64,000 nt of DNA, taken from IMG/VR virus record IMGVR_UViG_3300044610_000169. The stretch is one strand, 5' to 3'. This DNA comes from an uncultured virus (IMG/VR IMGVR_UViG_3300044610_000169) (taxonomy: Duplodnaviria > Heunggongvirae > Uroviricota > Caudoviricetes). Below, piece by piece: positions 18,244-46,100 of this stretch. Position 1 is the first letter of the stretch. Each line of letters starts with the position of its first letter. The notes beneath the pieces are model-generated. The model made no database searches, was not told the origin of the DNA, and saw only the letters and a list, made by a program, of their open reading frames with translations. The position numbers and the translations under genes are program-made.

Positions 18244-18315
18244 AGCCCCCGGTAGGATTCGAACCTACGCCATCTGGTAAACAACCAGGCGTTCCACCGC
18301 AATAACTTCAGGAGC
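18244..18315 (-). tRNA. tRNA-Asn(GTT), atypical
   Basis: Acceptor GCTCCTG/CGGGGGC, anticodon arm CTGG-TTGTTTA-CCAG, T arm GTAGG-TTCGAAT-CCTAC; U37 instead of a purine; no encoded CCA. Confidence 0.75.
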
Positions 18316-18611: not shown

Positions 18612-18613
18612 AG

Positions 18614-18681
18614 TTGCGGGTCTAGGAATCGCACCTAGCACTCGGAGCTTATGAGACTCCGATGGGCCTAGCCCACCCGCA
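18614..18681 (-). tRNA. tRNA with CAT anticodon (Met/Ile2), shrunken D arm
   Basis: Acceptor TGCGGGT/ACCCGCA, GGGC-TAG-GCCC mini D arm, extended anticodon stem around CTCATAA, T arm CTAGG-TGCGATT-CCTAG. Confidence 0.7.
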
Positions 18682-23660: not shown

Positions 23661-24149
23661 CGCAAACCTCCAAAGAAATCTTCAATCAAACGTATCCATT
23701 GCAGGATCTTCGAGTCGCATGCCGAGGGATTCGAACCCCCGCGCCACACACGCTGTCTCGCTTTCGATTGCAATCCTACTCGCGTAGTCGATGGCCATCA
23801 TTCTCGAAGACCCTGCGATAAACACGTCACCGCCGTAAGTATACTCGCATGGACCCGATGACGCAAGTGCTTTTATAAACGCGGGAAACGGGGATACCGC
23901 TACCGTCTCGTGCGATGGGGTGGGGGGTCCGGTTCGTTTTCCGTTGGTTCGCATCGCTTCGCGTCGTTTCGGTCGTCGCGCGGTCGATAGCCACCGCAGC
24001 GCAAAAATGTTGCCCATGGGCAACAAAAAGCGTCAAATAGGGTCCATCGCTTTGCTCGTCACAAAACGCAGGGAAAACACCGCGAAACACCGCACAAAAC
24101 AACGCACCATCAAGCCTATACCCGTGCCAACGTGCCATTGTGGCATCCA

Positions 24150-24755
24150 TCAGCGATCCGGCAGCATTTCAGCGAGCAACCCACGGATCTCGTCGATTGC
24201 CAGCCGTTCGCGTCGCACCATGTCCCGCTCGTCCTCGACATGCGCAGAAGCTTTGGCAGCGACGTCCACAAATTTGCTGTATGCGCGGATGGAAGTCTCA
24301 AGCCAACCCAACGCCGCCCAGCTCGGCGCGGGACTCATCGCTTTGCGCAGATCGACGATTGCGCGGTCCCCGAGGTCACGGACCACCGACAGCCGGTTCG
24401 CCTGTACCCACTGGATCTCTTGCGCTAGCGTCGCGTTCGGCGGCAGCGTCGGCCACTCCGCTGGGATTGCGTCCAGTCCAGTGACGGCGGCTTCGTCTCG
24501 TGCGTGCGTGCCGTTCCCCGCTACGTTGTTTTGCGCCGTCGGGTTCGCGTCGCCCCCTGCATCCCCCCGCGATTCTTCCCGATGCTGTTCTCGTTGCGGA
24601 TACAGTTCGAGGAGTTTCGCGTAGACTTCCGCCCGCGCTGCTTCTTTTTCCAGTCCGCTGCGCCTGGCGATCCGCATCAGTTCATCACGCTGCGGCTCAA
24701 TCTCGGTCCAGCGTCCATCGCGTTGCCAGTTTCGCGTCACTTCCAGTATGTCCAC
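24150..24755 (-). CDS. Hypothetical protein, candidate terminase small subunit
   Basis: First gene of the leftward transcript; helical, 201 aa; shares ACGCGAAGT at its start codon with terL. The ORF is credible, but the function is inferred only. Confidence 0.4.
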   Translation of the reverse strand: MDILEVTRNWQRDGRWTEIEPQRDELMRIARRSGLEKEAARAEVYAKLLELYPQREQHREESRGDAGGDANPTAQNNVAGNGTHARDEAAVTGLDAIPAEWPTLPPNATLAQEIQWVQANRLSVVRDLGDRAIVDLRKAMSPAPSWAALGWLETSIRAYSKFVDVAAKASAHVEDERDMVRRERLAIDEIRGLLAEMLPDR

Positions 24756-25007
24756 TTCGCGTTACCCTTTCGCGTCACTTTCAGAGCGCAAAGATTCCTA
24801 TGATTCCGCAGGTTGTTTATCGACGCCGCAACCGATCCGAAGATCCCGACTAGCCATTGGCTACCCCTCGCGTCTATTCGGCAGTGTAGGCTTTCGCCTG
24901 CTCACCGACAGATTGGATCAACTCCGGTCGACCCGCTCGACGATCCTTCGGTCTGTGCTCTCGCCTTAGACTCTCGGCAGGATCGTATGCCGCTTTGATT
25001 TGCTCCC

Positions 25008-25035
25008 AAGATACCACCCCGAGATCCAGCGTCAA
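25008..25035 (-). promoter_or_regulatory. Leftward promoter of a divergent pair
   Basis: TTGACG-N16-TATCTT with extended TG; AT-rich upstream tract. Confidence 0.55.
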
Positions 25036-25085
25036 CTATTTTGGAAAAAACTAGATCTTTTTTTTATTTAGGGTGGAACCCTAAT

Positions 25086-25114
25086 TGACAAATAGCCGTA
25101 TGGTACTTAGGATC
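25086..25114 (+). promoter_or_regulatory. Rightward early promoter
   Basis: TTGACA-N17-TAGGAT at the strand switch. Confidence 0.65.
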
Positions 25115-25189
25115 ATATCGGGTAGGCACGTTGCCACCCACACACAACCCGCGACCGTGAGACGTCGCACATTTTTGGAGATGATGACG

Positions 25190-25564
25190 ATGATTGCCAT
25201 TCAGACAAAAGTGCTTTCAACAGGGACCAAAGGCACGAAAATCAAGGCTTGGACCTCGAACAAGCACTCCGTGACGATCCCGTATCCACACGATCTATCC
25301 AACGAACGCGCCCATTTTGCTGCGGTCCAAGCTCTGGTGGCAAAACACAAGCTCGAATGGGACTTGTCCGAGATGCGATGGGGCGGAGTGGATCACGGTT
25401 ATGTTTTTTGCTTTGCGGACTCCATCGTAGCTCCCCCCAAGCCTGAATACCAGCCAAAGACTGGCGAAGCTTGCGGCTGCCGTCCTGGCGTGGCTCGGGA
25501 CAACTGTCCAGCCTGTGAGGGTACTGGCCAAAAGATCGATTTCGCCGCGATCCGTGCTCGATAA
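25190..25564 (+). CDS. Early phage protein (AIQTK...GTKIKA family) with C-terminal Zn finger
   Basis: GGAG RBS; CGC...CPACEGTG. Confidence 0.7.
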   Translation: MIAIQTKVLSTGTKGTKIKAWTSNKHSVTIPYPHDLSNERAHFAAVQALVAKHKLEWDLSEMRWGGVDHGYVFCFADSIVAPPKPEYQPKTGEACGCRPGVARDNCPACEGTGQKIDFAAIRAR

Positions 25565-25572
25565 TCCGCTGC

Positions 25573-25627
25573 CAGTGCTCACCCGAGGGGAACCGCCCGA
25601 TCCCCGAGGGCCTGCACTGTTCGCAGG
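25573..25627 (+). repeat. Structured intergenic motif, copy A
   Basis: CAGT..CCC-GA-GGGGA-loop-TCCCC-GA-GGG-CCTGC-ACTGTTC-GCAGG. Confidence 0.7.
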
Positions 25628-25656
25628 ACAATCACAACATTTTGGAGACGATACGA

Positions 25657-25944
25657 ATGCAATTCACGAAGACAGCAAGCGGCAATTGGGCAAGGCAGAC
25701 GCAAACCAGAGAGAGCAAGTCTCTCGGCACCTACTTGACCGAATTGGAAGCCCGAGCGGTCCCAGGCGTCGACGAGGTTGGCCCACTGGTCGCTAACGGC
25801 AAGGTGGCAAAGCGTCACGGCGTAGCGGTCGGCACCGTGGTCTATCTGGCGATCAAGTACGGCAAGACTCGGCGATTCATGGTTCACGCCACGGCTGCGG
25901 AATGCGTAGCTCGCGGCGTGGTCCCAGGTGCTTGCAACGTCTAA
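25657..25944 (+). CDS. Hypothetical protein
   Basis: GGAGA RBS. Confidence 0.65.
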   Translation: MQFTKTASGNWARQTQTRESKSLGTYLTELEARAVPGVDEVGPLVANGKVAKRHGVAVGTVVYLAIKYGKTRRFMVHATAAECVARGVVPGACNV

Positions 25945-25968
25945 TTTTTCACCAACGGAGAAAAGACC

Positions 25969-26190
25969 GTGCCGACTTACACCCTTCAAGACACCTTCAA
26001 CCAACGCGCAATCAGTAACCACCGCTCCATGGCAGCGGCAGTCAAGGCGGATCTAAAGCATCGTCGAGGGGTCGCGAGATCCAACGGACGAGGGAGCTAC
26101 ATTCCGACTACAATCCTGATCGACGGCAAGAAACTCGACGGCGAAGACTATTTGTATTGCTTGTCACTTTATGAAAAATTTTATCGCTAG
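25969..26190 (+). CDS. Hypothetical protein
   Basis: GGAGA RBS; YTL.DTFN...IS.HR motif. Confidence 0.65.
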   Translation: MPTYTLQDTFNQRAISNHRSMAAAVKADLKHRRGVARSNGRGSYIPTTILIDGKKLDGEDYLYCLSLYEKFYR

Positions 26191-26303
26191 GCTCGGTGGG
26201 GTTAGGCCGAGTGCGGCTCCCTCTCGGGAGCGTCCCCAAGTTGACACAGTGTCAACCGGAAACACCGCAGGCGTGAGACCCTGCACGACATGGAGATTGT
26301 TCG

Positions 26304-26804
26304 ATGAACGGCATTTACGAAACACGATTGACGAAGACCGACAGCGGATACCAAACAAGCTTGGTACGGATCGGCGAGACCGCCGCCCATTATGGAGCGG
26401 TCACGCTTACCGGATGCGACGACAGCAAGCGATTTGGCGAAACCCATCTCCGATCCTGGTTTCGCGACAAGTGCGACCAAGAGGAGATGGTTGTTGTCTT
26501 GCTCGGCACGCGAAACAACGTCATCAACATCATTCGGTCGACCCGAGGCACGCTTAACGCTTCCCTAGTGCATCCCCGCGAAGTGTTTCGCGCAGCAGTG
26601 CAACAAGCAGCGGCGGCTGTCCTGCTCGCGCACAACCACCCTTCTGGCGACTCTACGCCGAGCCAAGAAGACATATCGATCACGGATCGACTCAAGAAGG
26701 CTGGGGAGATTGTTGGAATCCAGGTTCTCGATCATATCGTTATTGGCGACGACGTTGTATCGATCGTCGAACATCAAACCCGTCGATCTTGGGCAACGTT
26801 CTAA
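26304..26804 (+). CDS. radC: RadC-family JAB domain protein
   Basis: GTLNASLVHPREVF, HNHPSGD..PS.ED, VLDHIVIG. Confidence 0.92.
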   Translation: MNGIYETRLTKTDSGYQTSLVRIGETAAHYGAVTLTGCDDSKRFGETHLRSWFRDKCDQEEMVVVLLGTRNNVINIIRSTRGTLNASLVHPREVFRAAVQQAAAAVLLAHNHPSGDSTPSQEDISITDRLKKAGEIVGIQVLDHIVIGDDVVSIVEHQTRRSWATF

Positions 26805-26863
26805 TCGCATCTCCCGCTTGGTCCAGCACCCAGGCGGATCGTCTCACAGTGCTGGCGCGGTTT

Positions 26864-26886
26864 GCCGATGCGTATTCGGCTTTTTT
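26864..26886 (+). terminator. Possible intrinsic terminator
   Basis: GCCGA/TCGGC stem plus T6. Confidence 0.45.
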
Positions 26887-26918
26887 CCCACACACAATGC
26901 AATTGGAGATTTGCACGA

Positions 26919-27545
26919 ATGAAGATGCTTAAAGTGGTTACAAATGGCGAGAACGCGAAAATGGGACCGGGAGTTGGGACGACGTATCGCCCAGTCGGTG
27001 ACACCTGCCCTCCTGATTGTGGTTTGCTCAAGCTTTGCTATGCCAAACGTGGACACGTCAACATCCACCAGCAGCATTCCAAGCAAGATGACCACGACCT
27101 GATGAAACTTGCTGGCAACACCCTGGTGCGCCACCTCGTATCGGGCGACTGGCTCAAGACGATTGCAAACGGACGCAAGATCCTTGACCGCGCCCTGGTT
27201 GCTGGCGTCCTGGAATTGCATCGTAAGTGTCCCTGGCTCACCGGATGGGGCTACACCCATGCCATTGATCGATTCGACAAGGCTGGCATCACCCCGGCAA
27301 GCCTGCCAAGCAATTTCCACCTGTTAGCAAGTTGCGACACCGCAGAGCAAAAGGCACAAGCCAATGCGAACGGATGGAGGACCGCCCGAGTCATCGACGA
27401 ACTGACAGACAAGCAACCAGACGAGTTTGTGTGTCCGGTTGATGCAGCCAAGCGCAAAGGCATCCCACAAGAACGCAGGACCAACTGCGCATTGTGCAAG
27501 GCTTGTTTTGCCACTGATCGTAACATCGCTTTTTTGAAGTTCTGA
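26919..27545 (+). CDS. GP88-like radical-SAM-fold protein
   Basis: NAKMG, TCPPDC...CYAKRG, VRHLVSGD, WGYTH, CP...CALCKAC. Confidence 0.7.
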   Translation: MKMLKVVTNGENAKMGPGVGTTYRPVGDTCPPDCGLLKLCYAKRGHVNIHQQHSKQDDHDLMKLAGNTLVRHLVSGDWLKTIANGRKILDRALVAGVLELHRKCPWLTGWGYTHAIDRFDKAGITPASLPSNFHLLASCDTAEQKAQANANGWRTARVIDELTDKQPDEFVCPVDAAKRKGIPQERRTNCALCKACFATDRNIAFLKF

Positions 27546-27565
27546 CCACACAAGGAAAATCGACC

Positions 27566-27784
27566 ATGACCAACTTAGAACGCAAGACCAGGAGACTGCG
27601 CAACGCACTGCGCGAGATCTACGGCGACGAATCACCCGAAACGCTCATAACCGACGCGCTGGCTGATATGCGGCATTTGTGCGATGCCGACGGCGTTTCA
27701 TTTTCTGAGGTTGACCGCATCGCGCAGGATCACTATTTGACCGAGAAAAACACTCAGATGCGCTTCCAGTTCGAGGACGCATAG
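27566..27784 (+). CDS. Hypothetical protein
   Basis: AAGGA RBS; ITDALADMRHLCD motif. Confidence 0.7.
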   Translation: MTNLERKTRRLRNALREIYGDESPETLITDALADMRHLCDADGVSFSEVDRIAQDHYLTEKNTQMRFQFEDA

Positions 27785-27853
27785 TACACGACCGAACAAG
27801 CCTTTTTTGCGGGTCGGCTCCGCTTTTTACTGCTAACTTTGGAGATTTCTAAC

Positions 27854-28177
27854 ATGCTACGAACACTGAAGGCCGTTCACACCGTTTGGGGTCAGTCCCA
27901 ACACAGTAAAGAGTTTGCGCCGGGTATCGTGCTGCATTCAACGGCAGGACACGGAGGAATTGTGCTGAGTGCTGCAAGGCACAAGGAGCTACAAGCAAAA
28001 TTTGAGTTCGAAACGTTCGCGGGAGGGTCCAACTACGAAGAGGATTGTGACGTCGCGGTTGTTGTGATGGCATTCCCTCAATTCTTCAACGAGGATCAGC
28101 AACAACGCGCGAGATCACAAGTGTTAGCCAATCCCGAGTATTACGGCAACGTCGCCGCATGGGTCAAGGCGAACTAG
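27854..28177 (+). CDS. DUF7007-like protein
   Basis: T.WG, STAGHGG, YEEDC motifs. Confidence 0.7.
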   Translation: MLRTLKAVHTVWGQSQHSKEFAPGIVLHSTAGHGGIVLSAARHKELQAKFEFETFAGGSNYEEDCDVAVVVMAFPQFFNEDQQQRARSQVLANPEYYGNVAAWVKAN

Positions 28178-28205
28178 GACAACCAACTACAAGGAGATTT
28201 TTACG

Positions 28206-28454
28206 ATGAACCAACAAATGCAAAGAGAGATCGGAGCACGACGGGGAGCGATAATGCTCTATAAGGCGAATCATCTCGTATGCGACCTGAAAAAAGGCGA
28301 TTTATTTTGCTTTCCGAACAGTCCTCACGTTTTTGAATATCGTGGTCGAGGGTGGTATAGGTCAACCGCATTCCCAAATTCTGGCATGACGTACAGAACA
28401 GGCACGTTTACGGCATGTTTCCCGCAGTCGGCAACGTGTTTGGCGGCAAGCTAA
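28206..28454 (+). CDS. Hypothetical protein
   Basis: AAGGAG RBS. Confidence 0.6.
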   Translation: MNQQMQREIGARRGAIMLYKANHLVCDLKKGDLFCFPNSPHVFEYRGRGWYRSTAFPNSGMTYRTGTFTACFPQSATCLAAS

Positions 28455-28514
28455 GACGTTTCGCGCGTGAGTCCATCGAACGCCCCGATGGACAATCGCC
28501 TGCAACGTCGCAGG
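28455..28514 (+). repeat. Structured intergenic motif, copy B
   Basis: GACGTT-TCGC-GCG..GA-GTCCATCG/CGATGGAC..CGC-CTGC-AACGTC-GCAGG. Confidence 0.75.
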
Positions 28515-28545
28515 AATGTTTCACCCTATGTTTGGAGATAGTACG

Positions 28546-28722
28546 ATGAAAGTCACGATTGAGAACAACGAGTTGGTTATCCGCATCGCAATGCAAGAGC
28601 CACGACCATCGGCAAGCGGTAAAACGCTGGTTGTGGCGACCAGCAGCGGCAACAAGACGACTGAGGCGACCGTAAACGGGAAACCGATCACCATCGGTTT
28701 GAACGCCTACATCACTCGCTAG
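28546..28722 (+). CDS. Small conserved protein (SASGKTLVVAT family)
   Basis: PSASGKTLVVATSSGN...IGLNAY; GGAGA RBS. Confidence 0.75.
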   Translation: MKVTIENNELVIRIAMQEPRPSASGKTLVVATSSGNKTTEATVNGKPITIGLNAYITR

Positions 28723-28724
28723 CC

Positions 28725-28779
28725 ACGTTTCGCGCACGAGGGGACACCCCGAGTCCCTGAGTGCCTGCAACGTCGCAGG
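28725..28779 (+). repeat. Structured intergenic motif, copy C
   Basis: ACGTT-TCGC-GCAC-GA-GGGGAC/GTCCCT-GA-GTGC-CTGC-AACGTC-GCAGG. Confidence 0.75.
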
Positions 28780-28806
28780 AACACAACAACACAAGGAGAT
28801 TTTGCA

Positions 28807-29247
28807 ATGGCTTCAGACGAACAATTCAAGCGGCTGCTATTGGCGGCTAACGTACTACTGGACAACCACATGGACCTTGGCGATTGCTACGTCCATAACG
28901 ACAACGACGACGATGATTATCCAGAAGACGGAGACGGAGACCGCTGGTATCACGATTGGTGGGAACTGCGCGAGGCAATCAGAGGATGCGAACAGGCGGA
29001 CCCCGAAACGGCGGAAAAGTGGTTCGACATGATCGGCGACACAACGATCACCCGCGAGGCACTCGACTCAGGTAAGATCGTCCACACTGGATGGAAGTTG
29101 AACGGACAGGACACCCGTCGTCTGTACGAAACCCAGCCAGATTGGGGCGTCAACGTCATTAATTACTTTGATCTCAACGGCAGGTATTTAGGGCGAGACG
29201 ACAACGGACTTGAACCGACGTTTGCCGAGGCGACCAGCCAGCAATAG
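28807..29247 (+). CDS. Acidic hypothetical protein
   Basis: AAGGAG RBS; YLG.D..G.EP.F tail. Confidence 0.7.
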   Translation: MASDEQFKRLLLAANVLLDNHMDLGDCYVHNDNDDDDYPEDGDGDRWYHDWWELREAIRGCEQADPETAEKWFDMIGDTTITREALDSGKIVHTGWKLNGQDTRRLYETQPDWGVNVINYFDLNGRYLGRDDNGLEPTFAEATSQQ

Positions 29248-29321
29248 GAAACATGGTGCGCGGTACGAGCCACATCGACCGCACGGCTAGAGCGTGTTTC
29301 GAACTTTCGCGCGGCTAGCCG

Positions 29322-29379
29322 ATTCGGCGCGCAACTGAGCGGATGCGCCAGCATCGCGGGTTCGACCCCGCCGCCGAAT
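29322..29379 (+). ncRNA. Mini tRNA-like element (no anticodon arm)
   Basis: ATTCGGCG/CGCCGAAT stem, CGCA/TGCG hairpin, GCGGG-TTCGAC-CCCGC T-like arm. Confidence 0.45.
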
Positions 29380-29435
29380 TTGCCTCCTGCCGGGATTGGC
29401 TCCGGCTTACTAACACATTTTTTGGAGACGGTACA

Positions 29436-29561
29436 ATGGACTACGAAAAGCAGCTCCGAGTTCTGGCGGCGTTAAACTTCATCATTATTCTTCTGATGGC
29501 TAACTTGGTCCTCAATATGGGGATCTTGGTTCAAGTCGCTCTCATGCGCTCAGGCAAGTGA
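29436..29561 (+). CDS. Small membrane protein
   Basis: GGAGA RBS; long hydrophobic stretch. Confidence 0.6.
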   Translation: MDYEKQLRVLAALNFIIILLMANLVLNMGILVQVALMRSGK

Positions 29562-29611
29562 AGCGAAGCTCGATTAACAACGTTTTTTTGGAAACACAAG
29601 GAGATTTTACG

Positions 29612-29953
29612 ATGGCTAAGCATTCCCCAGGACCATACGTTGTTTGCACAAACGACAACGAACCAAACGTATTATTTATCGAGCAGGACGCTGAAAACTT
29701 GGCGGAGGAACACGGAGAACCGTCAGTAATTGGAGAGGTATATTTGACAGGCAACGGCATCGACGAGGCAACGGGACGAGCCAACGCAACACTGTGGGCA
29801 TCCGCGCCCGATATGCTCAAGGCTCTCAGAGAGTGCATCACCGACGAAGCATCTGTAGCCTACAAGAACAACGACCCTGAAAAACTCAGAAGGAGATTGC
29901 GATACATCACTAAAATCGTAATCCAGCAGATTGCACGAGCTACTGGCGAATAA
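29612..29953 (+). CDS. Phage 'SPGP...ANA.L.A.AP.ML' family protein
   Basis: KHSPGPY, ANATLWASAPDMLKAL. Confidence 0.75.
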   Translation: MAKHSPGPYVVCTNDNEPNVLFIEQDAENLAEEHGEPSVIGEVYLTGNGIDEATGRANATLWASAPDMLKALRECITDEASVAYKNNDPEKLRRRLRYITKIVIQQIARATGE

Positions 29954-30007
29954 CGACTCGCGCAAGCATTTACATTTTCAGTGAAGCTTTTACAGGAGAT
30001 TTTGATT

Positions 30008-30427
30008 ATGTCTGATCGGTATTACGGAACGGTTTACTTGGGCGGAAAAGTCACTCAAGAGCAGTTCGGCAAGTGCAAGGAGTTGCTAGAGTCTTGCTTG
30101 GACGACGAACTGAGCGACGACGGATCGGGAGCGTTTATTGAATGCAATGAGAGCGATTTAGCGGATATCGTTGCGTACTGCAAGTCTGAAAGCATTGCGT
30201 TGTCTTTGCACTGGGAAGCTTCAGGCGACCAAGGTAGTTACGTTGAGTATTGGATCGGCGGAGCTTACAAGTTCTATGTCGCTGATTTAGAAGGCAACAT
30301 TGCGGTCAGAATGTCCGACTTGAAAGCACACCCCGAGATGACTATCGCGGAGTTCATTGCCAGGATGGACATCCCCGAGTTCCCCTTGTTTGAAATCATC
30401 GAAACCCCTGAGCAGCAACCCGCCTGA
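30008..30427 (+). CDS. Hypothetical protein
   Basis: AGGAGA RBS. Confidence 0.7.
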   Translation: MSDRYYGTVYLGGKVTQEQFGKCKELLESCLDDELSDDGSGAFIECNESDLADIVAYCKSESIALSLHWEASGDQGSYVEYWIGGAYKFYVADLEGNIAVRMSDLKAHPEMTIAEFIARMDIPEFPLFEIIETPEQQPA

Positions 30428-30494
30428 CACCACCCGTCACCCAGCGGCGGGGTGATGGTTTCAACAATAGCGCGCCCGAACGCCGCTCGGGCGC

Positions 30495-30839
30495 ATGGAA
30501 TTTATGCAAATGTTACTCGAAGAAGCAGTTGAGATAATCGACAACCGAAATGGAAAACCGCATGAAGATGATTGGGATTTGGCTGATGCCGCAACTACAG
30601 TTAGGCAATATGTCATGAGTATTCCTAAATTGGAAAGGGTATCGACAAAGCGACTAAAAGCCATGGACGTCGGGGAGTGTCGCGTATTTTCGGAACCAGA
30701 AAACACGAAAAATACTGGCGCACCTTCGCAGGGGTTCGCCTGTCGTGCCAATGTTAAAATCACTACTACGGCTTGTTTGATTGTAGTGCCGTCAACTGCA
30801 ACGACAGTAAAAGCCGTAATCGTAGTTAGGGTCGCATAA
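30495..30839 (+). CDS. Hypothetical protein
   Basis: ORF on the coding strand; start uncertain. Confidence 0.5.
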   Translation: MEFMQMLLEEAVEIIDNRNGKPHEDDWDLADAATTVRQYVMSIPKLERVSTKRLKAMDVGECRVFSEPENTKNTGAPSQGFACRANVKITTTACLIVVPSTATTVKAVIVVRVA

Positions 30840-30984
30840 CACCCTGGGATCACCAAAGCTCCCGCAGTAATCCTTATATCGCGATAGAGACGCGAACACG
30901 AGGGGATTCGCCCAATCCCCGACTGTCCGCGCCCCTGGCAGTCAGAGGCAGGATAGCACCATTGCAAAGGAGATTGCACACACC

Positions 30985-31428
30985 ATGACATCCGTAACGA
31001 TTAAGACCGTCACGGCTCCCCCGTTCATTGAGCGCGGCACAAGGCTCACGCCACGGCTGCACCTTGTCGTTGATTACACGAAAGGAGGGACCAGCCTGAT
31101 TAACGGCAAGCACTACCCCCGAGGGTATCAGATTTCAGTCCGGTTCGACCGGATCGCCGACGATGGCGAGATATCGCAGGTCATCGACGGCAAAGGAGAT
31201 CCGTCGCTGTGCATCGAACCATCACCACGGTTCACTAGGAAGCGACTGGATAGCATTGTCGCGGAAGTCTATGGCGAGCTGCATCAACGGCTCATCAGGG
31301 AACTGTACCGCCAAGCAACGGCGGACCGCAGCAACCACGTTTGGCCGGACGACATCCTACCGTTGAACAAGCCAACAGAACATACGGAGAGTACAAGTGT
31401 ACGTAGTGAAAACATGCACGAAGTGTAA
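30985..31428 (+). CDS. Hypothetical protein
   Basis: AAGGAG RBS; YTKGG.....G...PRGY motif. Confidence 0.7.
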   Translation: MTSVTIKTVTAPPFIERGTRLTPRLHLVVDYTKGGTSLINGKHYPRGYQISVRFDRIADDGEISQVIDGKGDPSLCIEPSPRFTRKRLDSIVAEVYGELHQRLIRELYRQATADRSNHVWPDDILPLNKPTEHTESTSVRSENMHEV

Positions 31429-31612
31429 GCAGGAAAAGCCGCTTGCCGAATTTGGACGCTACACGCGCACCAAAGACGGCTTGGACACTCAATGCAAGGA
31501 ATGTCGGAAATCCAAACAAAAGACCCCAGAGTCACGCAACTTGCCTGGGAATCGTCGGCAATGGACTGAAGGCATGATGCGGCATCTCGAACTAGGACCA
31601 GGAGACTATTGA
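31397..31612 (+). CDS. Zn-binding protein (HNH-associated N-terminal type)
   Basis: KTCTKC..EKPL.EF...KDGL...CKEC. Confidence 0.65.
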   Translation: MYVVKTCTKCKQEKPLAEFGRYTRTKDGLDTQCKECRKSKQKTPESRNLPGNRRQWTEGMMRHLELGPGDY

Positions 31613-31613
31613 T

Positions 31614-31760
31614 ATGGCAAGATGGATTTTGCTAGTTTTGTGCCTGTGCAGCGGTTGCGCAGGCTATCGGACGAAAGTGACTTTCACCAAGATCGACGGG
31701 AAGCCAGCGATCAGTTTTGAGATTGAGGAATCAAGGAGATTTAATCATGCGGATAGGTAG
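31614..31760 (+). CDS. Small lipoprotein (48 aa)
   Basis: Below the ORF-track cutoff: MARWILLVLCLCSGC with a lipobox-like SGC; AGGAGA RBS. Confidence 0.6.
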   Translation: MARWILLVLCLCSGCAGYRTKVTFTKIDGKPAISFEIEESRRFNHADR

Positions 31761-32274
31761 TACAGTGCAGATCGGACGGCGCAACGAGGATTACGAATAC
31801 TCGGCTGTGCCGGGATCACCATCGGGCATCGTCATTGGAATCGACAGCCAGGAATGCGACAATCACGAGCGCGTCGAGTCGGTGAAAATCCGATGGCAGG
31901 ACGGCAGGATCGAAACCCTCGAACCCGAGGGAGACGACGATCAAGGCGACTGGGAGTTGGTCGACACGACCCCGTTGCTCTATGCCAACCTCTATTTGTA
32001 CGACCGCGCTTACGGCGGTTCAGAGGAGGGTGGATGGTGGTACGATACCTACACACCTGCCGATGGCGATTGGAACACCGAGCCAGCAAAGCACGGCTTA
32101 TGCGAGTCGGTTGACGCTGCCAAGGCGGCTTACGAAGCGTTGCAAGCATGGTGCGAAGAAGAGAACAAGAACCGTCGCAGTCCCCATAGCGTGGCGTCTG
32201 AGGGTCATTACGTTGTGTGGCTCGAAGCGTGGCCGGCTGAACACTCGCCAGCACGCAAACCCTACTATTGTTGA
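31747..32274 (+). CDS. Hypothetical protein
   Basis: AAGGAG RBS; DRAYGG.EEGGWWY motif, ends P.Y. Confidence 0.75.
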   Translation: MRIGSTVQIGRRNEDYEYSAVPGSPSGIVIGIDSQECDNHERVESVKIRWQDGRIETLEPEGDDDQGDWELVDTTPLLYANLYLYDRAYGGSEEGGWWYDTYTPADGDWNTEPAKHGLCESVDAAKAAYEALQAWCEEENKNRRSPHSVASEGHYVVWLEAWPAEHSPARKPYYC

Positions 32275-32286
32275 TTGGAGGCAATC

Positions 32287-32412
32287 GTGGATATTGTCGA
32301 CTGGATTGTTTTGGGAGTCCTGTACGTTGCAGGCTCCTATGGTTTGGCGGTACTTTGCTACGATGTTATTTTCCCAGCAATGGCTGGAAAGGATGAATGG
32401 GATGACAACTAA
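32287..32412 (+). CDS. Small membrane protein (41 aa)
   Basis: GGAGG RBS, GTG start, single TM. Confidence 0.55.
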   Translation: MDIVDWIVLGVLYVAGSYGLAVLCYDVIFPAMAGKDEWDDN

Positions 32413-32998
32413 ACACATCGAGGCGTTTTGGGTAAACGCAACGGCGGATGATGTTGCGCGGGTAATGGCAGGGGAGACGGTGGAGGCTAGGTTTCGCAAT
32501 TCAAAAAAGCACGAATGGGAAAACGGGAACTTGCGAGGGTGGAGTCAAGTCGAACAGGACAAGAGGTTTTGGGATCAACGCGCATACCAATGGCTTAAAT
32601 GCCAAGTCTACCGCGAGCCTTCCTGGTACGCGAACAAGCCCGAGCCGGGGCCGGGGTTCAGGCTGCTGGATAAGTTTCCCGATGAGGAATTGAAGCCGGG
32701 GGATGAGCTATGGTATAAGGAAGATGAGTTATGGGGCATAAGCAACAATGCCCACCACGACATGGCGCAGGGTCCAGGATGCTGGTATCGCCGACGCATC
32801 GAGGTGGTCGAGCCTGAGCCGAAGCATTACGTTTTGCGGGTGGGTGATTCGGTCGAAAGCCCAAGCGGCGATCGGATCAAGTGCGTAGAGCCGAGCGTTG
32901 AGCAAAGGCACTACAAGCTCAGGGCTACCGATACGATCAGCACACCCAACGGGCTGACGATCACGATCACGGAAAAAGGCTTTGAGGTGACGCAGTGA
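32402..32998 (+). CDS. Modular hypothetical protein
   Basis: Contains the PG.G.RLL...E....GD...WYRR module and a duplicated HY.LR..D...P.G unit. Confidence 0.7.
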   Translation: MTTKHIEAFWVNATADDVARVMAGETVEARFRNSKKHEWENGNLRGWSQVEQDKRFWDQRAYQWLKCQVYREPSWYANKPEPGPGFRLLDKFPDEELKPGDELWYKEDELWGISNNAHHDMAQGPGCWYRRRIEVVEPEPKHYVLRVGDSVESPSGDRIKCVEPSVEQRHYKLRATDTISTPNGLTITITEKGFEVTQ

Positions 32999-33198
32999 GC
33001 GAACAACAGAAGCCCAACCCAGGTTTAGGCTATAGATTGCTGGCTAGCCATGAGTCGTTGCAGGCGGGTGATGACGTATACAAAATCTCTGGATGGAAAA
33101 AAAGCATGGGCGCAGAATGCGGACAAAAACAAATGCTAGATCTTTGGTATCGACGGAAAAAGAAAAAATCGAAGCCGATCGATCCAGAGCAGCCATGA
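32995..33198 (+). CDS. Single-module paralog of the preceding gene
   Basis: PGLGYRLL...ESLQAGD...WYRR. Confidence 0.65.
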   Translation: MSEQQKPNPGLGYRLLASHESLQAGDDVYKISGWKKSMGAECGQKQMLDLWYRRKKKKSKPIDPEQP

Positions 33199-33265
33199 AA
33201 CGAGCTCACTGCTGTAAGCATTTACAGGGAATGATTTCAGTGTCAGTTAGCGAGGAGGTGAAGCA

Positions 33266-33472
33266 ATGACTCAGGAAACTAAACCAACGCCGCGAGAGTG
33301 GTTCGTCGAGGCGATCATTCGCGACAAAGGTAATTCGGCAGACGAAGTGTGGGAAGCGTTTTGTGCGTTCGCACAGCAGCGGCTCAAAGAGGACTACCCC
33401 GACTCGTCATACGCCGCAATGGTGTTTGACGGAGGGGACGGCGAGATCATTGGACTGGAGCTGCACGAATGA
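33266..33472 (+). CDS. Hypothetical protein
   Basis: GGAGGTG RBS; last gene before convergence. Confidence 0.65.
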   Translation: MTQETKPTPREWFVEAIIRDKGNSADEVWEAFCAFAQQRLKEDYPDSSYAAMVFDGGDGEIIGLELHE

Positions 33473-33539
33473 GCATTTATACCCACCAACCACGCAACGC
33501 TGACACTCGCTCATGGGGTGCCAGCGTTTTTTCGTTGGT

Positions 33540-34109
33540 CTATCGCTCCGAAGACTTTCGAGCCTGCGCAAACCGTAATAGGTCGATCGGCTGCACTCGC
33601 CACATAGCACGTTGCGCCTTGTCGGGTCGAACGTCCACCGCAGCTAGCTCGCCACTGTCGATCCAGGTTTGCACTGTGCGACGGTTCACCCGCATCTTGT
33701 CCGCCACTTCATCGACTTTAAGCATTTCGTTTTTCATAAACGCAACAACCTCCTCTATCTCGATTCTCCGAGGTGCTCTCGGTGAAGTCAACTCCAAGTA
33801 GGCAATGAGATCCCAGTCGTGCAACCGACGCTCGGCGAGCAATGCAAGCTGCCTTGCCTCCGGCCACTTCCCCGCATCTCCAAGCGAGTCATGGCAAGTT
33901 CGGCAGACAACAAGCAACGCAAAGAGTTTGTCGAGACTCTTTTGCCGATGCACCCCCCTGGAGATTTCATGGACATCGAATGGCATTGTCCAATCGCTCA
34001 AGAATGGACGATCGCACACCTCACAGCACCCAACCGACTCACGGAGGCTGTCCCGAACAGGCTTAGCCGCCATGAATCGTGCTCGTGTCTTGTCGCTCAT
34101 GCGTTTCAT
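33540..34109 (-). CDS. HNH-like domain fused to excisionase-type HTH
   Basis: CEVC...DVHEI...CRTCH, then LKVDEVADKMRVNRRTVQTWIDSGEL.A. Confidence 0.75.
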   Translation of the reverse strand: MKRMSDKTRARFMAAKPVRDSLRESVGCCEVCDRPFLSDWTMPFDVHEISRGVHRQKSLDKLFALLVVCRTCHDSLGDAGKWPEARQLALLAERRLHDWDLIAYLELTSPRAPRRIEIEEVVAFMKNEMLKVDEVADKMRVNRRTVQTWIDSGELAAVDVRPDKAQRAMWRVQPIDLLRFAQARKSSER

Positions 34110-34111
34110 GG

Positions 34112-34363
34112 CTAGAAGGGTGCTCCGCCAGTCGATGGAGAGTCTGGCTTGCTAGATTGGGCATTGCTGCCGCCTGCTTCTTTCGGAGTGAAAGACAGAC
34201 TGAGAAACTCACCTGACTTTCCTTGCTTGATCCAAGCGGATATCCACACCTTCTGTCCGTTAATCACCCCGTCCCCTTTGCGATCGGGCAGGTTCGACTT
34301 CGGATCGGTTTTCTTATCGTTGACGAAAAGGGTTCCGCTATTGTCGCGTTGTTCGTAAGGCAT
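34112..34363 (-). CDS. Small ssDNA-binding-like protein
   Basis: NSGTLF.N.KK, PD.KG, ISAW, FLSL, C-terminal APF. Confidence 0.75.
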   Translation of the reverse strand: MPYEQRDNSGTLFVNDKKTDPKSNLPDRKGDGVINGQKVWISAWIKQGKSGEFLSLSFTPKEAGGSNAQSSKPDSPSTGGAPF

Positions 34364-34364
34364 A

Positions 34365-34754
34365 CTAAGTCACTTCCTTTTGCGAGCCGTGAGTTTTTAC
34401 ATTGTGGCAATGCTCGCACAGCACCACAAATCCGTCTGCTTCACATAGCAGACGCTCTACAAATCCTGGGAGATCACTGTACGCCAGCAACCTCCCTACT
34501 GGAATCACATGGTCGACCGCGACTTGCTTCTGCGGGAACCACTGCAAGCATTGGCTGCATTGGTGCTCGTATTTCAGTCGCTTGTTGTCGCTCTGACTCG
34601 GACGCCGCGAGGCTTCCATCGCACGTTGTAACGGACGCCACTTGCGAGACATCAGCCGCAGGTTCGATCGGATGAACGACCAGAACCCCGCCTCTGTCAT
34701 GGTGTTGTCGGCTCGGGTTCTAGGAACCCGCTGTTTCTTCGGTTGCTTTCGCAT
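34365..34754 (-). CDS. HNH-type endonuclease
   Basis: FIRS.LR, CSQC, VDHVIPVG, LCEHCHNVKT. Confidence 0.8.
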   Translation of the reverse strand: MRKQPKKQRVPRTRADNTMTEAGFWSFIRSNLRLMSRKWRPLQRAMEASRRPSQSDNKRLKYEHQCSQCLQWFPQKQVAVDHVIPVGRLLAYSDLPGFVERLLCEADGFVVLCEHCHNVKTHGSQKEVT

Positions 34755-35037
34755 CACCACTCCCTTCTTCTTTTCGCCAGCCTGCAATTACTTCTTGCGC
34801 CCACGGCTCATCTACTTTAGATAGAGCCTCAGCCATCACAACAATTCCATTTTCTACCGCTAAGTACGCTTGCGCTCTATCGGCAAGACTTAAAGTTTCA
34901 TCGCCCACTTTGCTCAAAAGTCGTTTGAGCGAGCCTCTTTGCAGTGCAACTTCTATTTTGTTTTCGCTTAAACCCTGCTGCTTCCACCAGTCTACAATTG
35001 TATCTAAAAGTTGGTCAGTTTTGCTTTTCTCGCTCAT
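34720..35037 (-). CDS. Hypothetical protein
   Basis: GGAGAT RBS. Confidence 0.55.
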   Translation of the reverse strand: MSEKSKTDQLLDTIVDWWKQQGLSENKIEVALQRGSLKRLLSKVGDETLSLADRAQAYLAVENGIVVMAEALSKVDEPWAQEVIAGWRKEEGSGDAKATEETAGS

Positions 35038-43195: not shown

Positions 43196-46100
43196 CTATT
43201 TTGCAGGGGTCTTTTTCTCGTTTAGCTTGCGTCGAATCGTCCGCAATCTGTTGGCAAGCGACTCCTTCATTTGGTACACGCCTTCTCGCGTTTCATAGGC
43301 TGAACCGTAGTTGCGCTTGTAGTAGGCGATCAGTAGCAGTTGGATTTCCTTCGGTCCCATGCCAGCCTTGACTATCGCATCGAGAGCCTTGTCGCGATCC
43401 TCGACCGACTTCTTGAACGTCTCGTCGCTGTTGTAGTCCTTGCGCTTCGGATCTGCTGCTGCTGAGAACACCAGCGATTGCTTGCGCCCTTCTCGCTGCT
43501 TGTTGAACTTGTCCAACTGAGCGGTCGTCAGGTAGTCCTTGTAAGCAAGGTCGGGATCGTTCCATTTGACCCTTTCCAAGTCCTTGCCGAACAACTCCTC
43601 GCGTTTGGCAGCGTCGGCAGTCGCATACTGCGTTTTGGGTCCGTAGGTGCCACCACCCATCCCAAGCAGCGACAATGCGGTCACAACCGCTCCACCGACG
43701 AGTCCTCGCGCTTTCATCGTCTCGCCAGCTTCCTGGAACGACAGCGGGACAAACAGGTCGGTCGTCGCACTGAGTACCGTTTCTTTCTCGCCAATAACGT
43801 TCTCTCCGACTCGGAGATCTACGATCGCACCAGGAATCGGAGCCAGCTTCTTGCGCAGGAACCCAGTGCCAACGTCCCACAGGTCTGGATCCCCAAACTT
43901 GCGGTTTTCGCCGTAGAGGTCTTGAATGTCCCCGCGGAGTCCCTTCTTCTGTCCCGTTGCCATTTGACCGATGAGTGTTACCGTCTGGGAAAGACCTGCC
44001 ATCGGATCGATTCGAGTGTCACCGATCTTGAGCTTCATGAAGTCGCTCGATCGCGGATCAAACTCGACGGTCGGCTTTTCTTCCTCGTCATCGGTAAGCA
44101 GGCTCGCAAGCGCCACTGACAATCCGAGGAACGCCGTCAACCCCATGGCGTGCCGAGCGTACTCCATGGCGATCATCTTCTTGACTCGTCCTGACACCTT
44201 GGTCGAAGGGAGCAGGTAGAACGGCATGGCAAGGTACTGGAACCTCGACGCAACGTATCGAGGAGCGAAGAACACCGTGTTGAGGTTTGCGGCGGCTTGA
44301 TTGAACTTGCCGAGCTCCGCACGTCCCGTAGCGGCGTTGACGTATGACGCGATGACTTTGGCTTCGTCGATCGTCACTTCACCGCCAGCACCCAGGTTGC
44401 TCACCATGTATTTGAAAACTCGGAACCGCATCGAGTTTAGGAACGTGGTGTAGGCTCTGGCTGACGCAGCAATTGGCTTCAGTACGACTTGGCTAGCCGT
44501 GTTGATTTTCGTGCCTTTCTTTCCGATACCCCACTTTGCCCACCTACCCATGTACGCTTCCTCTTGTCTTGTGATCTTGCCGCTGTCGGTCGTAATGCTC
44601 AGTCCAGCTCGCATAGCAAGAGTGTACAACTCGTCCTTGCTGATTTTGTCCATGGTGTCGAACTCGGCATCGCCACGACGTAACGCCGCAAGCATTTCTC
44701 GGCTAGCTGCTGCCGCCAGTCTCGGGTGCGCCAGCGAAGCGATGCCACCCTGTCGGAACACCGCTGACAAGTCAAACGATGTCATGATCGCTCGAGACAG
44801 GTGCATCGTCTCTTTCGTCCGATCCCAAAACCGCTCCACCTTGCTCATGTTCCTGAGTCGGTATTCCGCAGCGTAGCGGAAAAACTCGTCCTTGAGGCTC
44901 ACAAGCTGTCGAGACAACTCAACCTCCCTCGGACTGAGCGTTCTTGGCTCCTTCTTCGGTTTTGGTCCGAAGTACCCTTGCGCCTTGCGATCCTCGTAGT
45001 CGGCAATCTGATTGAGCAGGTTGGCAACGTAAGCCTTCTCGGCTTGTCGCTCCAATCTCTCTGCTCTTTGTTCCATGTCCGCGTCTGTCATCTGCATCTC
45101 CCTGACAGCCTCACGCTGAGCTCGCAGTGACTCCAGCCTGTTCTGCTTGTCCTTGAGCGCCGGCGTCGAGATTGGCTCGGCACGCTCCTTTGCAGCGACA
45201 TTCCCCGAGGCTAGTTGCTGTTCGATCTTGGTGATCTCGCGATCGACAGCTCGCTCGGCGATGGCAGCACGTTGCTCAAACGTCAACTCAGGCTTGGGGA
45301 ACGTTGCCTTGTAGTCAGCCATGAGCTCGTCACGTTGCTTGCGCAGGCTCTCGATTTCCTTGGCTTGCTCAGCCTCGAAAGTGTTGGGTGTCCGTCCTGG
45401 AATCGGCTCCTTTGCCTTAATCGCCTTGTTCAAGTCGTAAATACGGTTCCTGAGTCCAGTCCTGATCGCCTGGAAGATGGTTTTTAGCTGAGATTCGGGA
45501 TCCGTGATGAAGTATTTGCTGTTCCGCTTCATTTCGTTGACTTCGCGAATCAACTCTCGTAACTCAGGACTTGGCTCGTCTCTCCCCCTACCGCTCTTTT
45601 TTGGAGCGATCCCCTGTTGCATATCCTCCTTTTTCGCCATTTGCTGATACTGAGCGTTTAGATCGCGAATGATCTTGTCCACTGTCTTCTGGCTTGGCGG
45701 CGAATACTGACCATAGCCGCTCATGGCGTCCATTGCCTCGCGTCGGGTGACATCCTCAAACACTTCCTGCAACGCCTCATGCACGCCGTCGATGACCTCC
45801 TCGGGGTCGGTGATGCCGAACTCGACCAAGTTAAGCTCGACCATCTTGGCAAGCCGCCTGAGTTCCGCAGTTTGCCGTTCGTCGGACATATCGGGAGCGG
45901 GAATGTCGCCTTGCGCCTTCAGTTTGTCCCAAGCCTTGCGCAAAGCAGCTCTCGCAGCGACAGGAACGTCACCTTTGATCACAGCCTTGAACTTGGACAT
46001 GAACTCACCAAACGAGTAGACGCCTGCCTCAACGAAGCTCTTGATCACTTCCTCGCCGTCCTCAGCCATCGCCTCGTCTTCGGTCTGCTGGAGCGTTGTC

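Follow-up and report, generated by a model that had tools for sequence, protein, structure and literature searches.

A stretch of 64,000 nucleotides from an uncultured virus of the Caudoviricetes (IMG/VR record IMGVR_UViG_3300044610_000169; the whole stretch is hereafter called the window) carries three copies of a small structured motif between genes of its early operon, and further copies were recovered in related phage records. Considering the pairing pattern and the orientation of 29 alignable copies, the motif is very probably an RNA fold under selection that acts in cis and belongs to the sense strand; it constitutes a new RNA family, with the proviso that one described in the Weinberg 2015/2017 alignments but absent from Rfam could be missed. 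As to its role, we tentatively propose, with a probability of about 0.4, that the motif would be a punctuation module (for processing, stability or insulation) of the polycistronic early transcript, placed between gene cassettes.

Three copies in the window share one architecture

The copies lie on the + strand at 25571-25627 (copy A), 28455-28514 (copy B) and 28724-28779 (copy C), and each was defined by its sequence, its covariance model score, its place in the alignment and its pair counts. Each starts 0 to 8 nt from a stop codon (TAA at 25562-25564, TAA at 28452-28454 and TAG at 28720-28722, respectively) and ends 27 to 31 nt upstream of an ATG (25657, 28546 and 28807), ahead of a GGAGA-type ribosome-binding site (RBS), in agreement with an earlier note that had picked out these three places from the sequence alone. 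The element consists of a 5' strand, a variable hairpin (H1) and a second hairpin (H2), the loop of which is complementary to the 5' strand. In copy A, the 5' strand CAGT (25573-25576; alignment columns 12-17 correspond to 25571-25576) is followed by H1 at 25582-25610 (CCC/GA/GGGGA, loop, TCCCC/GA/GGG), while H2 is composed of CCTGC (25611-25615), the loop ACTGTTC (25616-25622), whose ACTG pairs with CAGT, and GCAGG (25623-25627). Copy B has the 5' strand GACGTT (28455-28460), the linker TCGCG (28461-28465), H1 at 28466-28498 (CG/TGA/GTCCATCG, loop AACGCCC, CGATGGAC/AAT/CG) and H2 with CCTGC (28499-28503), the loop AACGTC (28504-28509) and GCAGG (28510-28514). For copy C, the corresponding parts are (C)ACGTT (28724-28729), TCGCG (28730-28734), H1 at 28735-28763 (CAC/GA/GGGGAC, loop ACCCCGA, GTCCCT/GA/GTG) and H2 with CCTGC (28764-28768), AACGTC (28769-28774) and GCAGG (28775-28779). 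The internal loops of H1 contain G.A/A.G in copies A and C and U.U, G.A and A.A in copy B; the outer stems are CCC/GGG (A), (G)CG/CG(C) (B) and GCAC/GUGC (C); and the 5'-strand/loop complementarity is ACGTT/AACGT in copies B and C and CAGT/ACTG in copy A. The tandem GA or internal loops, C-rich loops, outer stems and complementary strands that the earlier note had reported were all borne out.

The arrangement CCTGC-N4-9-GCAGG occurred three times in the window against 0.35 expected, and none of 100 shuffled sequences reached three. Moreover, a covariance model built from 18 copies, which encodes H1 and H2 and not the 5'-strand/loop pairing, scored copies A, B and C at 54.7, 71.0 and 78.9 bits, respectively, compared with 21 bits or less for the rest of the window.

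Covariation places the fold on the sense strand

The alignment (A3) comprised 29 copies and 20 declared pairs, covering the 5'-strand/loop helix, the outer and inner stems of H1, and H2. Standard pairs filled 88.9% of 577 cells, compared with 73.7% in a shuffle control that ignores relatedness, and none of the 500 shuffles reached the observed value; counted as independent events, the loop helix had switched at least four times and H2 two or three times. When the partners were slid by 1 to 3 columns, standard pairs amounted to at most 46%. Compensatory and outer-stem covariation, which the earlier note had claimed, was therefore strong in the 29 copies. Four of the six pairs of the 5'-strand/loop helix had changed on both sides; for instance, columns 15-67 held GC in 20 copies and AU in nine with none unpaired, and columns 16-66 held UA in 19, GC in eight, UG in one and another combination in one. 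At least five distinct 5'-strand/loop combinations were present, including GACGUU with AACGUC (or with GACGUU via two G.U pairs), CAGU or GGCAGU with ACUG(UC), AGAUU with AAUUU, ACAGC with GCUGU, and GACGGC with GCCUUU at the cost of one mismatch; in an extra weak copy, UAGC pairs with GCUA. The H2 stem (CYGC/GCRG) was near-invariant, with three of its five pairs constant in all 29 copies, UA in 25 copies and CG in four at columns 62-74 (none unpaired), and, at the terminal pair, a single replacement of C-G by U-A. The outermost pseudoknot pair was unpaired in 11 of the 29 copies and the outermost H2 pair in five, and single mismatches occurred in copies G11a, G12 and G8c. H1 is variable and usually contains the tandem G.A; three copies (G4a, G5a and G7a) lack this loop and keep the rest.

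Across the helices, G.U pairs on the sense strand outnumbered A.C combinations by 29 to 8, and all 29 copies were intercistronic and oriented as their flanking open reading frames (ORFs), indicating that the fold belongs to the sense strand, i.e., to the mRNA. In every copy the 5' strand starts -1 to 8 nt past the stop codon, and the distance from the end of H2 to the next start codon was about 21 to 46 nt, mostly in the twenties, by scripted measurement. These observations bear on the idea that the motif acts at the DNA level, as an operator, a promoter or a recombination site where cassettes join, its RNA structure being a by-product of an imperfect palindrome. The whole element is indeed an imperfect palindrome, copies stand exactly at mosaic junctions between phages, and the window has a serine recombinase gene, but the G.U count lies far above that of A.C, the variable hairpin keeps its pairing through many compensatory changes and lacks a conserved sequence that a protein could recognize, promoter-like hexamers are absent from the copies, and all copies follow transcription in a single orientation; we consider a DNA-level element highly improbable.

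Distribution of the motif among phages

The survey yielded 29 alignable copies and one weak copy. Beside the window, they were spread over 14 records, of which 13 are IMG/VR contigs and one is a phage-like contig of a metagenome-assembled genome (MAG); the alignable ones came from the window and 13 of these records. Each genome carried one to four copies, all within the same few kilobases of the early operon, and the family has few members, some of them redundant through common descent. A scan of IMG/VR with the exact 16-mer of copies B and C returned 38 loci, near the chance expectation, 13 of which (in 12 records) had the whole context of 5' strand, a different hairpin, the 16-mer, an A/C-rich spacer, GGAGA and ATG; the other 25 were chance-level matches. 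Two more records were obtained with a loop-agnostic pattern, and a scan seeded on the unrelated pistol-like element (described below) gained the weak copy. Building a covariance model from the copies and searching with it, as the earlier note had suggested, revealed more copies, with differing loops and stems, when whole related records were covered.

The genome scan gave one match, the 9-kb contig C357 (L091/G013) of a MAG labelled Crocinitomicaceae, which carries early-operon genes of the window, one motif copy, one copy of the sister form described below and two pistol-like elements. This contig looks like a phage fragment binned into the MAG, and since its phage genes are shared with the window, it is no reliable guide to the host. 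Its strong Shine-Dalgarno sites would not be typical of Crocinitomicaceae, which makes the host label doubtful. In the metagenome scan, the loop-agnostic pattern matched at least 121 stretches; among the 80 loci listed, most were antisense to tRNA genes and a few fell in unrelated coding sequence, and these 80 loci held no true copy, with just two weak hits (18.6 and 17.1 bits) to the covariance model. The pattern (GAGGGG...CCCNGA....CTGC......GCAG; L165-L244) fits the T arm and anticodon arm of many bacterial tRNA genes when these are read in reverse complement, a pitfall for pattern searches with the motif. The likeness of the motif to antisense tRNA is an artefact of the search pattern, and a tRNA-like origin was rejected, ARAGORN finding just two real tRNA genes in the window.

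Comparison with known RNA families

Rfam 15 at gathering thresholds reported one feature in the whole window, a tRNA at 18244-18315, and no motif copy; at E of ≤10 over 25000-31500, four weak hits appeared, none on copy A, B or C, and at E of ≤0.5 the 13 related loci gave no match. The absence of any Rfam ribozyme match on the copies at E of ≤10 is in line with the statement of the earlier note that no hammerhead, twister, pistol or hepatitis delta virus (HDV) core could be recognized. Its proposal of a new cis RNA motif stands on the lack of an Rfam match, the strong covariation, the sense orientation and the absence of the 16-mer from the literature searched, outside which lay about 1.7 million PMC articles and the Weinberg supplements. 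No Pistol hit fell on copy A, B or C, and the series UUAGG...GCG...GU, conserved in the nearby pistol-like element, is absent from the motif alignment. The hammerhead has a conserved core flanking stem II, with the short motif CUGANGA ... GAAA, in a three-way junction; it was rejected, its core being absent by inspection and Rfam giving no hit, and the corresponding flanks in the motif are base-paired outer-stem nucleotides of varying sequence. The likeness is limited to the G.A/A.G pairs next to H1, which resemble the stem II extension.

Several other candidates were discarded. The R''/R' core motifs of integron attC sites do not fit the ends of the motif; a stop-codon read-through signal is contradicted by an in-frame stop within 28 codons in copy B; and an intrinsic terminator was rejected, terminator-like sites lying at 26864 and 27809 and none at the copies, where A/C-rich sequence follows H2. 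The PeSL cassettes of T4-type phages, which combine an early promoter and a stem-loop at gene-shuffling junctions, resemble the motif as repeated intergenic stem-loop modules bordering mosaic early-gene cassettes, but the motif lacks promoter hexamers at its copies and has the conservation pattern of an RNA fold; with six promoter-like sites in 24000-35000 (6.1 expected) and none at the copies, a promoter or PeSL promoter cassette was dismissed. The non-cleaving ribozyme-associated RNAs (Weinberg et al. 2015, 2017, as reported in excerpts of PMC6765202) are likewise conserved intergenic structures beside ribozymes and phage genes; among the curated Rfam families, none matches the motif.

Pseudoknot versus long hairpin

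The designation pseudoknot-like in the earlier note holds in part. The strand order S1a-S2a-S1b-S2b (5' strand, CYGC, loop, GCRG), with both helices covarying, is that of an H-type pseudoknot. However, the same 5'-strand/loop pairs fit a preferred nested hairpin that excludes H2, in which the linker (consensus UCGCG) pairs imperfectly with CYGC of H2; column pairs 19-63, 20-62 and 22-60 were formed in 29, 27 and 24 of the 29 copies, respectively, and 18-64 and 21-61 in six and four. This long hairpin, with about 20 to 25 stacked levels and a 2x2 or 3x3 loop, is the minimum free energy fold of the window copies and beats H1 plus H2 in stability in 27 of 29 copies, by roughly 0.1 to 11 kcal/mol. 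Moreover, the loop between S1b and S2b is 0 to 1 nt long (2 to 3 nt in copy A), with none between S2a and S1b, and such short connecting segments mean that a true pseudoknot demands a kissing-loop-like geometry. The conservation and covariation of H2, on the other hand, count against a pure long-hairpin model.

Since the CYGC strand has two mutually exclusive partners, both conserved, the motif could be a translation-coupled switch, in which the long hairpin would form without a ribosome at the stop codon and a terminating ribosome would free CYGC for GCRG, the two states setting initiation or decay of the downstream cistron. The start of the 5' strand -1 to 8 nt after the stop codon, which is inside the footprint of a terminating ribosome, and the stability of the long hairpin would suit such a switch. 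Yet neither conformer sequesters the RBS or the start codon, a downstream fourth strand complementary to GCRG was not found on inspection, any compact phage genome would be expected to be closely packed behind its stop codons, and both hairpins of the sister motif coexist without competition; we judge the switch quite unlikely.

A sister motif

The earlier note had listed a partial fourth copy at 30891-30953, which did not hold up: its H1 hairpin alone matches (30897-30925, 20.7 bits, E of 3e-4), the 3' half is a different hairpin, and the 5' strand pairs just after H1 and not in a loop. Rather than a degraded copy, 30891-30948 (+) is a conserved sister motif, designated D-type and delimited by the covariance model match of H1 and an alignment of seven copies from the window and six other records. 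Its lower stem, CGCG (30891-30894) with CGCG (30928-30931), is nested and shows one compensatory change, from CGCG/CGCG to CUCG/CGAG; H1 (30897-30925) contains the tandem GA and the loop CGCCC, and a separate second hairpin is formed by CCCCTG (30932-30937) and CAGAGG (30943-30948). Unlike the main motif, the D-type has no pairing between the 5' strand and a hairpin loop. The coexistence of its long hairpin and 3' hairpin suggests that both helices are wanted together in the main type too, which might need them both at once.

Module exchange and the proposed punctuation role

The motif, its spacer and the RBS are common across phages, and the genes on either side are swapped. For instance, the 27 nt 3' of copy C are identical in the nearest record (G001), yet the following gene differs, and the gene that the window has 3' of copy C turns up in the MAG contig downstream of a motif copy whose H1 is different. 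The window and the L090 record share an orthologous first operon gene (71% identity to the last residue), which is followed by copy A in the former and by a pistol-like element in the latter. In both elements the 5' strand of the pseudoknot lies on or beside the upstream stop codon, although for the pistol-like element this comes from a crude script with some unreliable rows.

All 29 copies are intercistronic in the early operon and can form an irregular hairpin of about 20 to 25 levels with an internal loop, as T7-type RNase III signals do. The T7 sites R0.3, R0.5, R1, R1.1 and R1.3 are irregular helices of about two turns in a host-transcribed early operon. They share with the motif the repetition of related irregular hairpins with an internal loop between early cistrons, just upstream of an RBS; the motif differs in adding an invariant 3' hairpin, the loop of which forms one strand of the lower stem. 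No sequence relation is expected, the likeness being one of layout. Among the functions listed in the earlier note (put-like antiterminator, processing site, ribozyme or protein-binding site), the context favours processing or punctuation: the slot, the exchangeability with a probable self-cleaving element, the irregular helix of two turns and the positions of H1 and H2 all point to a punctuation role. In the proposed mechanism, the long irregular helix (5' strand with loop, linker with CYGC, and H1) would be the target of endonucleolytic processing, most likely by an RNase III-type enzyme of the host with specificity for double strands, as occurs between the cistrons of T7 early mRNA. After the cut, the upstream message would end in H1 as a 3' cap, and the downstream message would begin with H2 folded at its 5' end; both messages would thereby be stabilized, and the A/C-rich unstructured leader with its RBS would be shielded from upstream sequence. 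The 5' strand would be covered whenever a ribosome terminates at the stop codon next to it, so the fold should respond to upstream translation as well. It has been proposed that ribozymes located close to phage genes serve in the processing of polycistronic transcripts (excerpts of the review PMC6765202).

Several observations weigh against punctuation. Many gene boundaries in the early operon carry no RNA module, and the long helix of the D-type is shorter, at about 17 to 19 levels. The equivalent intergenic region at another junction holds a terminator-like hairpin in place of the module, and positional exchange alone is therefore no proof of equal function. The proposal also assumes a host RNase III that accepts the motif helix. 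In addition, a conserved stem sequence as in H2 is not required of a simple stabilizer hairpin and hints at specific recognition or tertiary contacts; this near-invariance, which punctuation leaves unexplained, is the main reason why a protein site and a ribozyme stay under consideration.

As a protein site, the invariant H2 stem would be bound by a phage translational repressor, cut by an endoribonuclease of the Cas6/Csy4 kind, or act as a CRISPR-repeat mimic holding host CRISPR proteins. Such a role would fit a stem sequence that is near-invariant while the H2 loop and H1 vary freely. The few early-operon products named by Pfam (a RadC-like JAB protein, DUF7227/GP88 and DUF7007) come from genes typical of early accessory or anti-defence regions. 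Against this, the Pfam scan of the window gave no candidate RNA-binding protein or nuclease, and the complementarity of the loop to the 5' strand is left unexplained; a specific protein site is in our view very unlikely.

A further alternative concerns termination. Terminator-like hairpins with T runs lie between coding genes of the early operon at 26864-26886 and 27809-27828 (+), as consensus matches only, and if functional would imply read-through control. The motif could then be a processive antitermination RNA allowing read-through of operon terminators, acting either directly on RNA polymerase, as put does, or via a phage protein, as nut/boxB does. In HK022, put RNAs of about 70 nt with two stem-loops lie in the nascent early transcript downstream of the early promoter, putR after the first gene, and suppress terminators via the zinc-binding domain of the RNA polymerase beta' subunit (excerpts of PMC9378689). 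Compared by layout and not by sequence, the motif is similar in size (about 60 to 70 nt), in its two hairpins and in its place beyond an early promoter: some 450 nt separate copy A from the promoter-like site upstream, with the first gene lying between them, and the terminator-like hairpins follow. However, put occurs twice per genome and the motif one to four times, also between late-positioned cassettes; put has a stem I triplex, and a loop/5'-strand pairing is not described for it in the available part of PMC9378689. Moreover, up to four copies per genome, some one 58-amino-acid gene apart, exceed the need, copies in the L089 and L090 records lie downstream of the first terminator-like T runs, and the terminator calls are consensus matches only. 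Antitermination is, in our view, a quite unlikely role for the motif.

Returning to punctuation, structured RNAs that organize phage early transcripts are known from few model phages only. These uncultivated lake phages have a modular intercistronic RNA system at the exact borders of cassette exchange, made up of the motif and its sister form, the P1-less pistol-like core, conserved-loop hairpins and a cloverleaf-like fold. Should the motif serve in processing or insulation, it would be a natural counterpart of the ribozyme and Csy4 insulators of synthetic operons and could find use as a compact new part.

A pistol-like element in the same operon

The next structured intergenic region (26191-26303) opens, within 600 nt of a motif copy, with a pistol-like core lacking P1 at 26191-26237 (+), recognized from a weak Rfam Pistol match and an alignment of 18 copies. 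It is composed of the pseudoknot 5' strand GCTCGG (26191-26196), P2 GGGG (26198-26201), TTAGG (26202-26206), the pseudoknot 3' strand CCGAGT (26207-26212), GCG (26213-26215), P3 (26216-26231), GT (26232-26233) and P2' CCCC (26234-26237); both P1 and the linker are missing, and the pseudoknot 5' strand stands one base ahead of P2. The Rfam Pistol model gave 22.5 bits, below its cut-off of 34.5, with model positions 24-68 alone matching, and two more copies scored 19 to 23 bits; positions 24-68 alone match in two of the three hits, and the third aligns the P1 part as well, over an insertion of 18 nt, which was taken as spurious. Among 18 distinct copies, 270 of 270 pair cells were standard, 11 of 15 pairs had changes on both sides, and the unpaired UUAGG, GCG and GU were invariant. 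The core is present in the window and also in L001, L006, L018, L025, L034, L035, L039, L041, L074, L090, L091, L297, L303, L330, L339, L356, L360 and L364. At least 17 more distinct full copies occurred among 97 pattern matches in 80 IMG/VR loci, and the pistol-like element is more widespread than the motif.

The published pistol ribozyme is defined by three stems (P1, P2 and P3), a pseudoknot of 6 bp that joins the loop of P1 to the P2-P3 junction, 10 nucleotides of high conservation and a cleavage junction at GU (excerpts of PMC4604425 and PMC6154101), with purine-32/G33, G40-C41-G42 and G53-U54 at the active site and cleavage junction (PMC6154101, in part). Transferring this numbering via the Rfam alignment, we infer that UUAGG, GCG and GU of the pistol-like element correspond to these three groups. 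Disrupting P1 strongly reduces the activity of the canonical pistol (PMC4604425, in part). Since P1 is absent, the element counts as a variant and falls outside the published definition; it is probably a minimal version of pistol that occurs naturally, predicted to be self-cleaving. Literature searches for variants of pistol and for ribozymes acting in polycistronic transcripts of phages returned no paper with the motif or a pistol without P1 in its title or at the beginning of its abstract.

This neighbor raises the question of whether the motif is itself a new self-cleaving ribozyme class, or a ribosome-gated self-processing RNA, which would cut the early transcript at cassette boundaries without protein and replace the P1-less pistol at the same slots, so that two unrelated catalytic RNAs, their folding gated by the terminating ribosome, would cut the early mRNA into cassettes. 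The two elements share the operon, the slot after a stop codon and before an RBS, the one orthologous junction that holds either, and the helix order S1a-S2a-S1b-S2b with an inserted variable hairpin; the motif is also small (about 60 nt), pairs in a pseudoknot-type manner and occurs in several copies per genome. The guilt-by-association logic is that followed for pistol, hatchet and twister-sister (PMC10085705 and PMC6765202, in part). However, the conserved nucleotides of the two are dissimilar, the variable hairpin lies between S1a and S2a in the motif and between S1b and S2b in pistol (RF02679), and the motif has no long conserved junctions. It offers few conserved unpaired nucleotides for an active site, the strongest conservation lying within the H2 stem, the tandem G.A loop is absent from three copies that are otherwise intact, and neither an Rfam ribozyme match nor a hammerhead core was found, as noted above. 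Several ribozyme-associated motifs, moreover, failed to cleave (PMC10085705 and PMC6765202, in part). Self-cleavage of the motif is, on balance, unlikely. If the motif did self-cleave, a new ribozyme class would have been found by the association logic that gave pistol and hatchet. The companion element would show that P1, reportedly important in the canonical pistol, is dispensable in nature.

Genomic setting and other structured regions

The early operon (about 25,100 to 34,200, + strand) is tightly packed with small genes and GGAGA-type RBSs, and it is preceded by a sigma-70-like promoter match, TTGACA-17-TAGGAT, at 25085-25113 (+; 10 of 12 matches, a consensus match only), upstream of all motif copies. 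The nearest record, G001, is an IMG/VR provirus with 80 to 95% identity across the early-operon region, and INPHARED phages gave no DNA match. Window DNA was found in lake-water metagenomes, and all 24 runs listed for 25000-31500 were of DNA type. The rest of the window is clearly phage, with an SU10-like portal, a serine recombinase, an ERF protein and a polyvalent protein of 5,404 amino acids, the ORF of which (43196-59410, - strand) contains ddrB-ParB, ART-PolyVal, ExoX-like and helicase (ResIII/DEAD) domains. Polyvalent proteins of this kind are thought to be delivered along with the DNA. Two phage-borne tRNA genes, Asn(GTT) at 18244-18315 and Met(CAT) at 18613-18681 (both - strand), were called by ARAGORN, the first of which is the only one reported by Rfam at the gathering threshold.

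Other structured intergenic regions were also observed. Directly 3' of the pistol-like element, a conserved, near-perfect palindromic hairpin, (G/C)UGACAC(A/U)GUGUCA(A/G)C, occupies 26240-26256 (+), with similar ones in L089, L090, L018, L074 and L360. Hairpins at 25151-25168 and 26267-26284 (+), also present in L089, L090 and L074, have variable stems of 4 to 5 bp and a conserved 8-nt loop, (A/C)GUGAGAC; they stand 15 to 25 nt upstream of RBSs, in the operon 5' leader, after pistol-like elements and after one motif copy, and show the pattern that would be expected of a loop-specific, boxB-like protein site. Finally, the 188-nt intergenic region 29248-29435 contains a predicted cloverleaf-like four-way fold at 29323-29378 (+), 97% identical in G001 and not called a tRNA by ARAGORN or Rfam, with an 8-bp closing stem and three arms, of which GCGGG-TTCGAC-CCCGC resembles a T arm; this fold may be a tRNA-like processing signal.

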